A stretch of DNA of 64,000 bases from the NCBI RefSeq assembly GCF_053078305.1, contig NZ_CP166875.1; one strand, given 5' to 3'. The position numbers were made by a program, and so were the translations under genes. Shown here piece by piece: positions 5,042 through 63,239 of the stretch (within the stretch, counting starts at the first letter, position 1; every line of letters starts with the position of its first letter). Source of the DNA: a plasmid. The notes under the pieces are model-generated. The model was not told where the DNA came from, made no database searches, and was given only the letters and a program-made list of their open reading frames with translations.

Positions 5042-5374
5042 ATGGAAAAGAAATTAAGCAGTAAATACATTCATATTTATATGAGTATATCCTGTGTGTT
5101 CATTCGTTTGACAGGCAAAGCATTAAAATTGTTTCCTTTTGCACTGGTGATGCTATTCACGGTGTTGTTTTATTTTATGCCTGAAAATGTTATCTGTGAC
5201 ATTATCAGTGAATGGCAGAGAAGTGATGTGTCAGACAGGATCAGAGTTATCAGACTATATCTGGGAACAACTTTTTTATGCACCTGGGCGGCTGTTTTTT
5301 TGGAGTTTCTCTGCTCTGATGAGTTTCTGCCGGGAAAGAGATTAAACAAAAATGAAGAAGAGAATAACGGGTAA
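5042..5374 (+). CDS. hypothetical small membrane protein (non-F cargo)
   Basis: 110-aa ORF, hydrophobic segments, AT-rich. Confidence 0.3.
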   Translation: MEKKLSSKYIHIYMSISCVFIRLTGKALKLFPFALVMLFTVLFYFMPENVICDIISEWQRSDVSDRIRVIRLYLGTTFLCTWAAVFLEFLCSDEFLPGKRLNKNEEENNG

Positions 5375-56309: not shown

Positions 56310-56722
56310 AACCAGTCTCCGTTGCTCATAAACAAATAGAAAAAACAAACATGCTTCATACATGCAATGTATATTTAATTATAATGAAAAAATGGTCTTT
56401 CTGAAAGGAGAAATACAACATAAAAACACGATAAATTGCATGTGCATTGTACACACAACTTTAAGACCAGAGGAAATCATAGATACAAAAACATTATGAA
56501 GGTTATATGTAATACATAAATGCAATATAAAAACATCTTTGACATCATGGTTCAGGTTAAGGGAAAAGGAATGACATGGTGAAACTGAGAGGAAAGGAAA
56601 GCGGTGACGAATCATGTCACCATAAACAGAAAGATGTCTAATGGGGACTCTTTAGGTACGTGAAGAATCCCCATAACGCATTTAAAAGACACACATCAGA
56701 TACCCTTAAGGTATCCGATAGT

Positions 56723-57031
56723 TTATTGACCTATTGCACCATCACGTTCAAGCTTCTCTCTTATAGCCTCAATAATATATGAGCTAAAATCCAGAGATGT
56801 TTTACTGGTCGCTTTAAGTTCCGCATGAGCTTCAAAATACGACAGCGGTATGGCCTTAAGATTCTTAGCCTTCGTCCTGGCAGCCACGGGACGACCTGAA
56901 ACTTCCTCTGCACCTTCATTTGGCTGAGACGGGGCTGTTGCTGTTACGGCAGAAGAAGAAGTTTGTAATCTGGCAGAATCCACCAGGTTTTTCAGTTTTT
57001 CAGCCTGTGCACTAAATTTCGCTTTGCTCAT
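56723..57031 (-). CDS. small partition adaptor downstream of parA (ParG/ParB-like)
   Basis: 102 aa with flexible N-terminus and C-terminal ribbon-helix-helix-like region. Confidence 0.45.
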   Translation of the reverse strand: MSKAKFSAQAEKLKNLVDSARLQTSSSAVTATAPSQPNEGAEEVSGRPVAARTKAKNLKAIPLSYFEAHAELKATSKTSLDFSSYIIEAIREKLERDGAIGQ

Positions 57032-57117
57032 GAGATAACCAAGGATGTTTGTTAGATACTTAAAAGATATCCATTAAAAGCCCAAAGGATACTATATGGA
57101 TACCCAATAGATACACC

Positions 57118-57762
57118 TTACTGTTTGTTATTTTCAATCAGATGATTGATTTCTTCGATCAGGGCAATAACTTCCTTACCTCCTGCCGAATAGCGCCCAT
57201 GAACAGACTCAGTGATTCCCATCCCAGTCTCAATGACATCCTCAAATTCTGCACGAGCAGAAATGCGGCTCTTCATCAGTTTCAGATGTTTGAACGATGG
57301 CAGGATTGCATCAAGCTTAGGGAATTTCTTCTTGTTAGGATTAACTTTACAGAGATACAGGTGAGCAGTTATATCGGTCCCCATGATAGAGCTGATTTCG
57401 TCCAGTACTCCATCAAAATGCATCAAACCAATACGTTCAGTCAGGGAGTCTTTTGAAGGGACAATAACGCAGTCTGCAAAGGCAATCGCAGTACGGGTAA
57501 GATCTGAGTCAAATCCCCCACAGTCAATAAGTAACGTCTTATCGCTGTTCTTGTAGGGAGTCATAATTTCGATTAACTCATCCACTGTTTTGGGTACTTT
57601 CACGGAAATTTCTTTTCCTTCAGGTCTCAGTCCCAGAATGATAGAAAGCCCGGTATGAGTATCCAGATCAACTGTATCAGACTTCATTTCACCAACAATG
57701 TTTACGGATGAAGTTGTCTTACCCACACCACCTTTGGGATGCGTATTAGCAATAACAGGCAT
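57118..57762 (-). CDS. parA: ParA/ParF-type Walker partition ATPase
   Basis: Start at MPVIANTHPKGGVGKTT preceded by ggaga; deviant Walker A. Confidence 0.85.
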   Translation of the reverse strand: MPVIANTHPKGGVGKTTSSVNIVGEMKSDTVDLDTHTGLSIILGLRPEGKEISVKVPKTVDELIEIMTPYKNSDKTLLIDCGGFDSDLTRTAIAFADCVIVPSKDSLTERIGLMHFDGVLDEISSIMGTDITAHLYLCKVNPNKKKFPKLDAILPSFKHLKLMKSRISARAEFEDVIETGMGITESVHGRYSAGGKEVIALIEEINHLIENNKQ

Positions 57763-57942
57763 AGTGTATCTCCAGAATCCACATGTAATACCCATAAAGA
57801 ACCCCCAAAGACACCTTTCGGATATCCAAGAGGTACTCAATAGATGTTTTTTTACTCTATACCGGTCCTGCATGTCAACAGAATATGAAATACCGATAAT
57901 ATATCCATGAGATATCCGAAAGGGATTTAAAAAAGTCAGAGC

Positions 57943-58722
57943 TTAAGGAATTCTTTTGAGCATAGACACCGCATCGGACTCAGGCATCGAAAACTGCACC
58001 CGGTGCCGTGCAGCCACATCCAGCGCAAACACCTTCGTGTAGACCTCTGTTGAGCTGATGGACTTATGCCCCATCAGGCTCTGCAGGACCTTCAGTGGTA
58101 TACCGGCATACAGCATGTGCATCGCATAGGAATGGCGGAACGTATGTGGAGTGACCGGGACAGAAAACGTCACACCATCAGCGGCAGCGGCGGCAACCGC
58201 TTCCCCAATCCAAGTCCTGGCCGTTCTGTCCGTCACTTCCCAGATCCGCGCTTTCTCTGTCCTGCCTGTTCGTTTATTACGCCGTTCCATGGGGATTTTC
58301 AGTGTGGCCATCATCGTCTGCAGCTGGCTGACGTACTGGTGATCTGAGAGCGGAACCAGGCGGTGTGTCTGCGCACCGGCTGCCGGACGTCCTGCCGTTC
58401 TGCCGGCTTTTTCCGTTCGCTGCTTGAGGGTCGCCAGCTGGACGAACGGGTAGGGAGATGTCAACTGAAAGTCATTCCGGGTCAGGGCCAGCGCTTCATT
58501 AATACGCGCGCCGGTGTTCCATAAAGTGGCCAGCAGCATTTTTCGGTGAAGGTCGGGCACGTAGTGGAGCAGGGCGCTGATTTCGGGCGCCAGCAGGTAT
58601 TTCGGCAGTTCGTCCTGAACGAGGGCCATCTGGCGCAGGGCCAGCGCCGCAGGGTAGTCGATGGCTACCGGCAACTGAGCAGTTGTCAACGAAACACCCT
58701 GACCTGGAACTGTCGGCATCAT
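57943..58722 (-). CDS. tyrosine site-specific recombinase (multimer-resolution type)
   Basis: 259 aa with catalytic-region motifs HTFRHSYA and Y. Confidence 0.85.
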   Translation of the reverse strand: MMPTVPGQGVSLTTAQLPVAIDYPAALALRQMALVQDELPKYLLAPEISALLHYVPDLHRKMLLATLWNTGARINEALALTRNDFQLTSPYPFVQLATLKQRTEKAGRTAGRPAAGAQTHRLVPLSDHQYVSQLQTMMATLKIPMERRNKRTGRTEKARIWEVTDRTARTWIGEAVAAAAADGVTFSVPVTPHTFRHSYAMHMLYAGIPLKVLQSLMGHKSISSTEVYTKVFALDVAARHRVQFSMPESDAVSMLKRIP

Positions 58723-58734
58723 TGTTTGTCGTCC

Positions 58735-59127
58735 TTAGCCATTGAGTCCATTGTGCTCTCCGGCTTCATTGGTTGTTGCGTGTCCGGCTTCAGCTTTAAT
58801 GATCGCGGTGACGGCTTTGTCTACTGAGAATGGGCGCAACTCCTGATTACTGAACCGAACTTTAAAACAAAGGTGCTGGGCATACTGCCCGTTCTGCCGT
58901 AACTCGTAATCAACAACAAAGGCAACGATGTGGCGGCCGTTCAGTTCCCAGCCTGGCGAAGCACCGCAGTAGCGGATGTAGAGATCTGACAGCTCGTCAA
59001 AGAACTCGCCTTCAGTTACTGGGCCGGATGCTCTTACCTCGTCACGCCGGGTCATGAAGTGATCCACGGCTGCCTTTTTGGAAGAAAACTCCCGTCCCCC
59101 GATAATCACCTTAGTGGAACGCCCCAT
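58735..59127 (-). CDS. hypothetical protein upstream of the recombinase
   Basis: 130 aa; ATG preceded by aaggag. Confidence 0.5.
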   Translation of the reverse strand: MGRSTKVIIGGREFSSKKAAVDHFMTRRDEVRASGPVTEGEFFDELSDLYIRYCGASPGWELNGRHIVAFVVDYELRQNGQYAQHLCFKVRFSNQELRPFSVDKAVTAIIKAEAGHATTNEAGEHNGLNG

Positions 59128-60121
59128 CCTTAACTCCTTTCTGGTTATGCAGCATTATTGTGAAATCCCGCCAGCCCTGGTGTGAGTGCCCTGCTTTCCG
59201 GCAGGACACTCAGTTTATCCCGGCGTGTAAGAAAAACCCTTTTTATCGAAGGCGGCTTTCTTACATACCTGGTTTACCGCTGGAGGAGCAGATACACGAT
59301 ACTAAGTATCGTAGGCAGGCATTTATAAAGCAGTGTCAGTACCATCTTTTTAATTGATAACTTCATAAACTAGCTGATATCTGTCTTGCTTTTCGTTGGT
59401 TTCATAGAAGCTCCTTTGCTTCTGATTAAAGCCAACATTATGCGCAAAGTTACATTTGAGTAGGGGATCAACAAAAAATTTCTTCCCTTCTCAAGATCAT
59501 TCTGATGACGATTCTGATCGCCCTCTCCAGTACAGTGATAACGCAGAAAACAATCACCATCAGCAACCATCCATACCACCGATAACCTGCCTGACTGTCA
59601 CTCTGATGGATTTTCCCTGCCGTAATGTTTACTTCTTATGATAATTCGCAGACATATAAAAACTACACTAAATTACTGGATGCCGGTTTTCAGATGATCC
59701 GATTTTCTGACTATACACGACTTTCCGGAAGTGTAGCACGCCTGAAGAATAAGCGAAGCGCTGTTTTCCGCCCCAGCGCGGCGCATCACAGGTCAGGGAG
59801 ATGACACAACATATAGTGTCACAAGCAGATGAATCCGGCACTACATATTGTGCTGACGGAAGATGGCGCTGTGCGGAGGGAGAGGAAGATCCGTGACCCA
59901 GGGTTTTCGGATCTGCGCGGCAGAAAAGCCGGAAACCGGATCTGCGCGGCGGGAAACGGGCAGGTGATATGATAATTAAGCAACACACATAAATTCATAG
60001 CAGACATGATTTTAATCATCAGTAATGAAATAATATCTGATATTATCAGAAATCGATAACACAAAAATCATATAGAATTTGATTTTTACCTGTCAGAACA
60101 TTATCAGATGGAGCGCGCAGG

Positions 60122-60379
60122 ATGGATGAAGAAAGGGTGTTTTCACTCAGCTATGAACAACTGACCCGGTTTGCGGAAAAACGCATCCGGGAATGCAATC
60201 TGGACAGCCAGGGCGCGATTTATCTCTGCGAGTCAGCCAAAGCCGGAGCCGTGCTGATCTTCTGGCATGAACTGGCCATAAATGGCTATGCCTCAATGAA
60301 TGCCATAAAGAGACAGGAGCTCATTGACGCCGACTTTCAGCGCCTCAGAAACCTCATCTGGCCGGAGAATGACAGGTAA
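60122..60379 (+). CDS. hypothetical protein
   Basis: 85-aa ORF whose stop overlaps next gene start. Confidence 0.4.
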   Translation: MDEERVFSLSYEQLTRFAEKRIRECNLDSQGAIYLCESAKAGAVLIFWHELAINGYASMNAIKRQELIDADFQRLRNLIWPENDR

Positions 60380-60969
60380 TGACCCAAAGCCGCCGACCGT
60401 CGCCACTGCAGCGGAGAGTGCTGATTGTGCTGGCTGCCCTTGATGAAAAACGGCCAGGCCCCGTGCTGACGCGGGACCTGGAACGGGTGCTGGAGCGAAG
60501 CGGGGAAGCCCCGGTCTACGGGCCAAACCTGCGCGCCTCCTGCCGTCGTCTGGAGGATGCCGGCTGGCTGCGTACCCTGCGCGCTCCGAACCTGCAGCTG
60601 GCAGTGGAGCTGACGGACGCCGGCCGGGCCGTGGCACAGCCTCTGCTGCTGGCAGAACAGGACCGCCTCCGGGCAGAACAGCGTGCGGCAGAAGTCGTCG
60701 TACTGCCGCTGATCCCGGCAGCAGGTCTGCCCGCAGACGGCACTTCTGCCACTGATCTGGCGGTGGAGCTGAACGGCATAACGTATCAGGCCTGCCGTGG
60801 GGATTTTGTGGTGCGTCTCGACGGCAGCACCTGTCTGCAGTTATGGAATAAAGAAGGCAGGGTGGTACGCCGGGAGGGCGATCCGCTGGAAGTGGCGCAG
60901 TGGCTGCAGGCCTGTCATGACGCAGGAATAGAAGTTCGCGTACAGATAAATGAAAGTGCCGCTCCGTAA
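60379..60969 (+). CDS. hypothetical GC-rich protein, possible winged-helix N-domain
   Basis: 196 aa; markedly GC-rich codon usage; overlap with upstream ORF. Confidence 0.45.
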   Translation: MTQSRRPSPLQRRVLIVLAALDEKRPGPVLTRDLERVLERSGEAPVYGPNLRASCRRLEDAGWLRTLRAPNLQLAVELTDAGRAVAQPLLLAEQDRLRAEQRAAEVVVLPLIPAAGLPADGTSATDLAVELNGITYQACRGDFVVRLDGSTCLQLWNKEGRVVRREGDPLEVAQWLQACHDAGIEVRVQINESAAP

Positions 60970-60988
60970 GAACACGCCTGTGCACGGT

Positions 60989-61336
60989 TTACACATCATC
61001 CCATGGTGGCAGCCGGTTAACTTTCCTGCGCCACCAGTGGAAAGAGGCCATGCACAGTCCGAACAAAAAACCCCCCGTGATACTTATAATAATGGCCTCA
61101 CCTGCCACCATTCCTGACGGCCCCCAGTAGATAAACCACATTGCACATCCCCAGGAAATGCCCCATAAGCCCCCCATCAGCACCGTGACCTGCCAGAACG
61201 GCATAAAGGGTAATGGCAGAAGCCGGATACCCAGCCGCCAGAGAATACGCAGAAGAGGAGGGGCATAATTGCTCCGCCACATCTTTTTGCTGTCCATCAG
61301 GGCAATGGCCCGGGCTTTTTTCTGCTCAAAGGTCAC
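60989..61336 (-). CDS. hypothetical membrane protein
   Basis: 115 aa with predicted TM helices. Confidence 0.4.
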   Translation of the reverse strand: MTFEQKKARAIALMDSKKMWRSNYAPPLLRILWRLGIRLLPLPFMPFWQVTVLMGGLWGISWGCAMWFIYWGPSGMVAGEAIIISITGGFLFGLCMASFHWWRRKVNRLPPWDDV

Positions 61337-61464
61337 AGGAGCACCTCCGTTCCATGATGTAAACGTGACACAACTTATTGTTATTGATTATTATTATCAT
61401 GCTGTGGTTATGTTGTCATGCATCAGTACATTGACAAAAGTGCAAAAGAAAGGAAAACAGGCAG

Positions 61465-61800
61465 ATGAACAGAAAATATTATTTTAATAATATGTGGTGG
61501 GGATGGTTTATGGGTGGGTATACTCTGTATATGTCATGGGATTATGAGTTTAAATACAGATTGCTGTTCTGGTGTATTTCTCTCTGCGGAATGGTTTTGT
61601 ATCCGGTTGCCAGATGGTGTATTGAAAATACTGCCCTGAAATTTACCCGGCCTGATTTCTGGAACAGCGGTTTTTTTGCTGATACTCCCGGAAAAATGGG
61701 ATTACTTGCGGTTTATACGGGTACTGTTTTCATATTATCTCTTCCGTTAACTCTGATATATATTCTTTCTGTTATCATAAAAAGGCTGTCTGTAAGATAG
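61465..61800 (+). CDS. colicin Ia/Ib-type immunity protein
   Basis: 111-aa polytopic protein starting MNRKYYFNNMWWGW, recalled as colicin Ia immunity; convergent with colicin gene. Confidence 0.8.
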   Translation: MNRKYYFNNMWWGWFMGGYTLYMSWDYEFKYRLLFWCISLCGMVLYPVARWCIENTALKFTRPDFWNSGFFADTPGKMGLLAVYTGTVFILSLPLTLIYILSVIIKRLSVR

Positions 61801-61821: not shown

Positions 61822-63239
61822 TTAAATGCCCCAGAACTTATTCGCTTTTTCCACAAGCGTTTCATCAATCAGTGCACCGGTGACAGCCATCAGTAAACCA
61901 TACCCGATAATGCCTAAAGCGCTTCCGGTAAGAATACTGAAGACCAGAGCAACAAGAGCCGTTGCGGCATTACCTGCTATGATGGTTTCTGTTTTAACAA
62001 AAAAGGACGCCAGTTATCTGTCCGGGCAGCCTTACCAAACTCAGTGATCCAGTCAGCAAAATTTGTAATTTTTCCTGCATATCCCAGTCCGCGACTGAAC
62101 CTGTTCAGATTAGACGATATATCAGACAGCTTCACAGACTCAAGGGCTGCGGCAATCGCTGCACGATCTTTTGCATTAATTTTTTTGTTAATGTCAGTCC
62201 GGTACTTTTCATACGTTTTTAATGCCTCTTCAACATTACGTATTTTCTTCCCTTTAGCCTGCCCGGCCATCTCTCTGGCTAACTGCTCAGCTTTTGCACC
62301 ATATTTTTCTGAAACTGATTTCAGGAACTCTGTTGTGAAATTAATTGCGTCTTTCGTTGCCTTCAGTTCATCCTGTTTTCTTTTCTCTTCCGCTATCTTC
62401 TGATTGATGCCGGCAAGCTGGTTACGGGTATTCTCTTTTTCCTTCAACAGGGCATTAAGAGCGTCATTTGCATGCTTTTGCTCATTTGTTCTGGCACTGA
62501 GGTTATTTCTCACCGAATTTACCGCAGATTCAGCAGAGGTGATTTTATTTCTGGCATCAAGCAATCTTTGCCGTAACTTATCCCATTCAGTAACTTCAGC
62601 ATTATAAATTTTCTTGTCACCTTCCACATCCTCTGTCACCACCGGATTCCGGTCATTCAGAATATTGCGTTTATAGTCCAGACCGGAATGAGTCAGAAGA
62701 TAATTCAGGTTTGCACGGTTATCGATGACTGCGCTGGTTGTGATTTTTATCGTATCGGCAAATCTCGGATCACCGCTCACAACAATAGAATGATTTGTTG
62801 ATGAACGCCCCGGGAATTTTTCAGAGGAAACTATCGTTTTGCCGTCAGGCGTGTTTTTCTGTTGCGTCAGCTGTTGTTCAGCTCTGGTTAATGCATTACG
62901 GGCCGTGTTAAGCGATTCCGTCACCGAACTGAGTTTATTCCGGGCCTCTGAAATGGCCCTGTCATTCCGTGTCTGCTGCTCGAGCAGACGGGCCTGTTGT
63001 GCATCAAGAACGGCAAGGGCTGCCCCGCCCTTTTTTTCCAGCTCTGACAACCGCGTATTCAGAATACCTTTTCTGCGCTCGTATTCAGCAAGCATATCAG
63101 CGGCCTTCTTGTCTGCGTTCTGCGCATCCTTCTGCCGTTTTTCAGCCTGTTCAATTAACGACCTGGCCTCGCGGGGAGATATACGAAGAGAATCAGCATC
63201 AGCAAACAGCATCCGGCTCTCTGTATGTGTCAACGCCAC
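61822..63239 (-). pseudogene. cia: colicin Ia-like pore-forming colicin, 5'-truncated and frameshifted
   Basis: 420-aa ORF matches colicin Ia from HTESRMLFADADSL onward; final ~50 codons (channel domain, ending KFWGI) are in another frame after a T-run near 62005..62015; colicin Ia N-terminus (MSDPVRITNPG...) not found in any frame upstream. Confidence 0.75.

Follow-up and report, generated by a model that had tools for sequence, protein, structure and literature searches.

The 64,000-nucleotide stretch of plasmid DNA analyzed here (contig NZ_CP166875.1 of assembly GCF_053078305.1; hereafter the window) encodes a 130-amino-acid (aa) protein and, directly after it, a tyrosine recombinase. Judged from the sequence, these genes and a site upstream of them very probably form a site-specific recombination system of the F-plasmid ResD/rfsF type on a mosaic plasmid, a known system in an ordinary copy. 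rfsF is a 28-bp site in which an 8-bp spacer separates two inverted repeats of 10 bp each (search pattern AGATCCGNAANNNNNNNNTTNCGGATCT); plasmids can fuse and resolve again at it through exchange within the spacer, and ResD-dependent resolution and fusion have been shown for F and for pOX38/virulence-plasmid fusions (PMC8299605). The target of ResD is rfsF (PMC4398462).

The recombinase is an ortholog of the F-plasmid ResD (D protein), the protein that in F is encoded directly after ccdA-ccdB: the two are 88% identical over 258 aa (BLASTP, E = 1e-164), and identity to the homolog on the IncI1 (IncI-gamma/K1) plasmid pND12_96 reaches 93%. Pfam Phage_integrase (PF00589) matches residues 42-231 of the 259-aa open reading frame (ORF) at E = 1.7e-18, with only ~40 residues before the catalytic domain, and the NCBIfam XerD, XerC and XerA matches are partial and far below their cut-offs (XerD, 83.7 bits versus a cut-off of 329.6). 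The R...HxxR...H...Y pattern is present in the motifs ARINE (R73), HTFRH (H193, R196) and GH (H219) and in Y228, which by sequence position are the candidate catalytic residues; the beta-hairpin lysine is ambiguous. These motifs and Y228 line up with the catalytic residues of Xer-type recombinases, and the HxxR...H...Y block also aligns with XerC-like and XerD structures. The sequence thus establishes ResD of the window as a short tyrosine recombinase whose catalytic residues follow the pattern of that class.

An original prediction, made from the letters of the window, had described a 130-aa gene with a strong ribosome-binding site co-oriented with a tyrosine recombinase, and had assigned the pair to a multimer-resolution kind of system with its site upstream of the operon. 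Both ORFs, the Phage_integrase domain and a strong Shine-Dalgarno sequence (AAAGGAG at 59134-59140, 6 nt before the ATG of the 130-aa gene) are indeed there, the identities to F ResD and to the IncI1 homolog agree with the assignment, and an rfsF site lies upstream, oriented as in F. The stop codon of the 130-aa gene precedes the resD ATG by 12 nt, and the two genes are probably co-transcribed and translationally coupled.

Searching the window with the rfsF pattern (arms AGATCCGNAA) gives a sole match, 59887-59914, which carries 1 mismatch; chance alone would yield 0.02 such matches. In the sense of the operon this core reads AGATCCGAAA-ACCCTGGG-TCACGGATCT, with 10-bp inverted arms around an 8-bp spacer (28 bp); the 130-aa start codon follows ~760 bp downstream, and the recombinase gene is 1.2 kb away. 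Window positions 59603-59917, read along the operon, align with the DNA that precedes F ccdA (local blastn, and a three-way alignment of the window, F and IncI1). This alignment takes in a block of ~260 bp adjoining the core that 14 plasmid modules share, with its sub-elements found in nearly all of them. The modules compared came from F, IncI1, E. coli AR_451, Citrobacter, Salmonella pRSE21, Raoultella, Klebsiella grimontii, Intestinirhabdus, Pantoea and a metagenome bin, IncFIA/FII types included. In each there is a single 10-8-10 site, placed and oriented as in the window, whose arms are conserved and whose spacer varies. Given this conservation, the block probably supplies accessory or regulatory sites.

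Table 1. Positions of the module's features in the window
Feature	Position	Strand	Basis
resD, 259-aa tyrosine recombinase, ortholog of F-plasmid ResD (D protein)	57943..58722	-	Pfam, BLASTP, structure alignment
130-aa first operon gene, divergent DUF3223/DeCL-fold protein (modeled)	58735..59127	-	ORF list, model, weak profile matches
Hairpin pair 59183-59212 and 59219-59272, 3' part of small-ORF module	59183..59272	.	Inverted repeats I6, I3
43-codon small ORF, strong Shine-Dalgarno AAAGGAG (59411-59417)	59274..59405	-	ORF list, IncHI2 comparison, hydropathy
Conserved block adjoining rfsF, homologous to F oriV1/rfsF region	59625..59886	-	Three-way alignment, local blastn, 14-locus alignment
TTATATG..TTATC element	59640-59659	-	14-locus alignment
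Box GTAATTTA	59668-59682	-	14-locus alignment
rfsF-arm-like AAAATCGGATC (window letters AAAATCGGATCA)	59695-59706	-	14-locus alignment
Box GTACACTTCCGGAAAG (window letters CTACACTTCCGGAAAGT)	59720-59736	-	14-locus alignment
GGGGCGGAAAACAGCG	59759-59774	-	Sub-element of conserved block
Inverted-repeat pair CACAAnATGTAG...CTATATGTTGTG	59805-59818 / 59839-59852	-	14-locus alignment
rfsF core recombination site	59887..59914	-	Published pattern match, comparison with other modules
Orphan extra left arm AGATCCGGTTTCCGGC, IncI1 type	59928..59943	-	Direct repeat D2, alignment with IncI1 pND12_96 and F

On this reading, ResD would exchange strands within the spacer via a Holliday-junction intermediate, as published for F. 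Two rfsF sites in direct repeat would recombine to turn dimers or cointegrates into monomers, and recombination between rfsF sites on different plasmids would fuse the replicons. The block at 59625-59886 probably contributes accessory or regulatory sites to these reactions, and the interval between it and resD would act as a slot for variable cargo.

Several observations weigh against this picture. The right arm TCACGGATCT differs by one base from the published pattern, although the same arm occurs in E. coli plasmid AR_451 unnamed4. The site is also not uniform within the lineage: near-identical contigs carry ACCCTGAG-TTCAGGATCT where the window has ACCCTGGG-TCACGGATCT. The accessory role of the block is drawn from conservation, and in F the same DNA is called oriV1. 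Finally, the interval from rfsF to the 130-aa gene yielded no convincing sigma-70 promoter, and promoter- and terminator-scan counts were no higher than in shuffled sequence; because promoter-like matches do not rise above that level, operon transcription is read from gene spacing only.

Two other accounts of the recombinase and its site were considered. The protein might be the integrase of an integrative element that uses a distant att site, and not a multimer resolvase; the original prediction had named this as the outcome that would overturn it, the database annotation reads 'site-specific integrase', and ResD/rfsF does catalyze fusion, that is, integration, between replicons (PMC8299605). 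We consider this scarcely credible in view of the 88% identity to F ResD, a plasmid multimer and cointegrate resolvase, and the shortness of the region before the catalytic domain. The gene moreover sits within a plasmid partition and stability cluster with its site 1.2 kb away, and no tRNA or att-type context was seen. The other account concerns the site, which the original prediction had sought in recombinase-binding repeats within ~300 bp of non-coding DNA directly upstream of the 130-aa gene (59130-59400). The gene-free stretch is in fact ~994 bp long (59128-60121) and ends at a divergent 85-aa gene at 60122; gene callers found no gene in the equivalent interval of five near-identical E. 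coli contigs. The rfsF core falls near the far end of it, outside the 57943-59400 span to which the prediction referred. A repeat search of 58700-60150 detected no recombinase-type arms in 59130-59400, which holds two hairpins and a small ORF instead, and placed the rfsF-type repeat further upstream. The 59130-59400 region does contain strong inverted repeats (I6, 59183-59212; I3, 59219-59272; and 59296-59315) and folds better than shuffled sequence. It has no rfsF-like arm, however, and is absent from the other 12 rfsF-resD modules, while the canonical site lies further upstream in all modules. Its hairpins are common to IncHI2 plasmids, and the 6-kb IncHI2 locus examined has neither a ResD homolog nor an rfsF-like site. 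A site in 59130-59400 is therefore very unlikely, and the sequence comparison has already largely refuted it. The segment 59172-59590 is specific to the lineage of the window: neither PLSDB nor the complete E. coli genomes gave a megablast match to 58723-59620, and distant blastn of the same interval returned two short blocks only.

Five E. coli contigs (L011-L015) encode identical 130-aa and near-identical ResD proteins and match the window across ~1 kb except at rfsF (5214-5241 in these contigs), where four substitutions cluster in the spacer and right arm (GGGTCAC in the window versus GAGTTCA). In contig L014, 9 single-nucleotide polymorphisms are confined to the far side of rfsF. IncI1 plasmids swap sets of variable genes (Delta/Col), and the swapped sets are bounded by rfsF (PMC8004404). 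The substitution cluster and the placement of the L014 polymorphisms are consistent with rfsF acting as an exchange point, as in IncI1, although they do not prove it.

A tandem duplication (window 59928-59956) creates an orphan IncI1-type left arm (AGATCCGGTT) upstream of the F-like core. This arm sits in the 29-bp duplication (59908-59927 / 59937-59956), has no matching right arm, and occurs in L011 and L014 too. A past IncI1 x IncF recombination may have left it as a scar, or it may serve as an additional half-site for ResD.

The exact 130-aa protein is found on 71 E. coli contigs, annotated as hypothetical. Pfam, NCBIfam and PHROGs gave no direct match to it, Pfam gave none even at E = 10 for it or for 20 close homologs, and an alignment profile of the family matched PDB sequences at chance level only. 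An AlphaFold model built from 20 homologs (predicted local distance difference test score, 80.6) has the fold of 2k0m, the solved representative of DUF3223. Two PADLOC HamC ('DUF3223 domain') models match the protein weakly (E = 0.004 and 0.007), and two remote family members, P0095 (29.9 bits) and P0102 (21.7 bits), score above the Pfam DUF3223 cut-off of 21. Because of the model, the weak HamC matches and these remote members, the 130-aa protein is, at the level of predicted structure, a divergent DUF3223/DeCL-fold protein. A profile search of 1.8 billion representatives returned 77 clusters, a narrow and plasmid-borne family.

Our literature search found no paper assigning a function to DUF3223 in bacteria. 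HamC (DUF3223) is known there solely by its association with type II Hachiman systems (PMC8565338), and the DUF3223 domain of a ciliate La protein promotes folding of defective pre-tRNAs (bioRxiv 10.1101/2022.06.07.494954). Neither hamA (DUF1837) nor hamB (helicase) lies beside the 130-aa gene, whose neighbors are resD, parA and the rfsF region, and no PADLOC HamA or HamB match was obtained among the neighbors scanned. In 10 of 14 distinct loci bearing a homolog, the homolog is preceded at a distance of 360-790 bp by an rfsF-like site and followed 0-2.4 kb further on by a ResD gene. At the Shewanella locus a short tyrosine recombinase lies just upstream instead, and the Aeromonas, Serratia and Pseudoalteromonas loci have neither ResD nor rfsF nearby. 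The small upstream ORFs of the Citrobacter, Salmonella and Aeromonas loci have no counterpart in the window. We regard the 130-aa gene as cargo that would travel preferentially with rfsF/ResD.

Upstream of the 130-aa gene lies the small ORF followed by the hairpin pair (Table 1). Codon 12 of the ORF is an in-frame TAG (59370-59372) and codon 14 an ATG, from which a 30-aa hydrophobic peptide is predicted (MKLSIKKMVLTLLYKCLPTILSIVYLLLQR). The hairpins, with folding z-scores of -2.7 and -3.1, are ~77% identical in nucleotide sequence to an intergenic element of IncHI2 plasmids (blastn matches in 59 IncHI2-type records). The IncHI2 module (L008, 3001-3232) has the same layout of Shine-Dalgarno sequence, 43-aa hydrophobic ORF and two hairpins, and is 100% conserved in the 59 records. 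The two ORFs share length, frame and position, with 9/43 residues identical. tblastn with the IncHI2 43-aa peptide recovered 59 identical copies only, which offer no diversity for a conservation test, and an Rfam search at E<=1 over 56500-61500 gave no match to the module, only a spurious snoRNA. As far as its sequence indicates, the module may be a cassette for a small membrane protein or of a type-I-toxin-like kind, intact or in decay.

A second short hydrophobic ORF lies just upstream of this module (59468-59566, minus strand; 32 aa from a TTG or 30 aa from an ATG: MVIVFCVITVLERAIRIVIRMILRREEIFC). Its grand average of hydropathy is 1.5 in the 32-aa form, it has no homolog found, and it may be a chance ORF.

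The contents of the slot between the rfsF block and resD vary between plasmids. F has ccdAB there, in an operon with the resolvase gene (PMC7157771), and IncI1 has two genes, of 85 and 229 aa, the second of which (L001, 7728-8417) matches the PADLOC candidate PDC-S67 at E = 1.3e-15. The AR_451 slot holds a DUF3223 homolog and a 273-aa protein (L002, 4406-5227) with a sub-threshold HEPN_RiboL-PSP match (E = 6.8e-5; 23.3 bits versus a cut-off of 28.4), that of K. grimontii a homolog of the 130-aa protein and two unknown genes, and that of the window the small hydrophobic-ORF/hairpin module and the DUF3223-fold gene. One could suppose that the 130-aa protein is not unrelated cargo but a dedicated rfsF/ResD partner, for example a nucleic-acid-binding accessory or regulatory factor. 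Its homolog is the first gene after the rfsF-like site in the 10 of 14 loci that also have ResD downstream, a recombinase accompanies it in Shewanella too, its stop codon nearly abuts the resD start, and the ciliate domain acts on pre-tRNA folding. The ResD modules of F and IncI1 lack a homolog of it, however, and homologs occur in Aeromonas, Serratia and Pseudoalteromonas away from ResD and rfsF; the other slot occupants look addiction- or defense-like (ccdAB, the PDC-S67 match, the sub-threshold HEPN-like partner), and type II Hachiman has a DUF3223 protein as its HamC (PMC8565338). We give the dedicated partner only a minor chance.

The module at 59183-59417 could likewise be a type-I-toxin-like or small-membrane-protein stability cassette that takes the slot, and possibly the role, of F ccdAB. 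The hydrophobic ORF with its strong Shine-Dalgarno sequence and two conserved hairpins, the complete conservation in 59 IncHI2 records and the toxin-antitoxin pair in the same slot of F would fit. This is nonetheless distinctly unlikely: two sequence lineages allow neither a covariation nor a codon-level test, the in-frame TAG may make the window copy a pseudogene, the peptides of the two lineages agree at few residues, and the module has no Rfam match and no antisense promoter above chance. Taken together, a joint proposal can be framed in which the slot is recombination-linked and filled with addiction- or defense-type genes, the DUF3223-fold family is an unrecognized ResD companion (a nucleic-acid-binding accessory protein or recombination regulator, or a stability or defense factor), and the 43-codon ORF with its hairpins is an undescribed type-I-toxin-like cassette shared with IncHI2. 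We put it forward tentatively and consider it improbable as a whole. What is new here, and only mildly so, is that the cargo slot holds uncharacterized genes and that these are repeatedly linked to rfsF.

The surroundings of the ResD/rfsF module combine two plasmid types. An F-type transfer region fills the first 25 kb of the window (1-25000) and matches NZ_CP045714.1 at 99.7% identity, and the last 25 kb (39001-64000), an IncI1-like leading and maintenance region, match IncI1 plasmids at ~94%, which makes the replicon a mosaic. Downstream of resD follow genes for a ParA ATPase, a 102-aa small ParB-like protein and ParM/StbB, and impCAB, in the order found in IncI1.

GATAYC motifs at 11-bp spacing (57055-57120 and 57800-57930) flank parA and the 102-aa gene and are accompanied by a perfect 13-bp inverted repeat (CCTTTCGGATATC / GATATCCGAAAGG, 84 nt apart). 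The motifs and the repeat are probably operator or centromere sites of this type Ib partition system. A 4-mismatch rfsF-like match at 57798-57825 was rejected as part of the GATAYC repeats in the parA operator region. On the other side of the module, the colicin Ia gene (61825-63227, minus strand) is a pseudogene that lacks its N-terminal 158 codons and has a frameshift near 62000; the adjoining colicin Ia immunity gene (61465-61800, plus strand) is intact.

ResD/rfsF modules keep large conjugative plasmids monomeric, and they also fuse and reshuffle resistance and virulence plasmids, as in the IncF-virulence plasmid hybrids of Klebsiella and the Delta/Col gene-set swaps of IncI1. The site at 59887-59914 marks the likely junction of variable and backbone regions in this mosaic plasmid. 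For annotation, a 'site-specific integrase' can now be read as ResD, and a 'hypothetical protein' as a predicted DUF3223-fold gene tied to rfsF. If the cargo slot is real, it would provide a simple rule for finding plasmid stability and defense genes beside rfsF.

The closest known system is ResD/rfsF of F (RepFIA: rfsF - oriV1 - ccdA - ccdB - resD). The window shares with it the 28-bp 10-8-10 core with identical 7-bp arm ends (AGATCCG/CGGATCT), the ~260-bp block after the core, and the placement of the site upstream of an operon in which resD comes last. The two differ in the spacer (ACCCTGGG in the window, ACCCCAAG in F) and in the right arm (TCA versus TTA), the orphan left arm 29 bp upstream is extra in the window, and F ccdAB is replaced by the small-ORF/hairpin module and the DUF3223-fold gene. 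Beyond the module, the window continues with IncI1-type parA/parB, whereas F has repE/sopABC. The IncI1 plasmids (R64, ColIb-P9, pND12_96) resemble the window in the downstream genes for ParA, the 102-aa protein, ParM/StbB and impCAB, and on the far side of rfsF in the 85-aa and 196-aa genes, DUF6404 and colicin Ia immunity. They differ in their core, AGATCCGGTT-TCCGGCGG-TTACGGATCT, and in their cargo of 85-aa and 229-aa genes, in place of the 130-aa gene of the window.

Krause and Guiney reportedly described, in 1991, an Rsd/crs system on Salmonella virulence plasmids with eight 17-bp direct repeats at crs. Our general repeat search of 58700-60150, which was not aimed at eight 17-bp repeats, found no array like those of crs. 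By description, Rsd/crs and RsdB/rfsF of pSLT derivatives (PMC9412624) resemble the window in their ~260-aa ResD-family recombinase, in the upstream position of its cis site, and in a segment rich in repeats that is homologous to F oriV1. The 130-aa protein differs from type II Hachiman HamC/DUF3223 (PF11523) in falling below every Pfam threshold and in having no hamA or hamB nearby. With Cre/loxP and XerCD/dif-cer, the module has in common the enzyme class and an inverted-arm core with a 6-8 bp spacer for dimer resolution; unlike those recombinases, ResD has no long N-terminal core-binding domain, and its similarity to them is limited to the catalytic domain.

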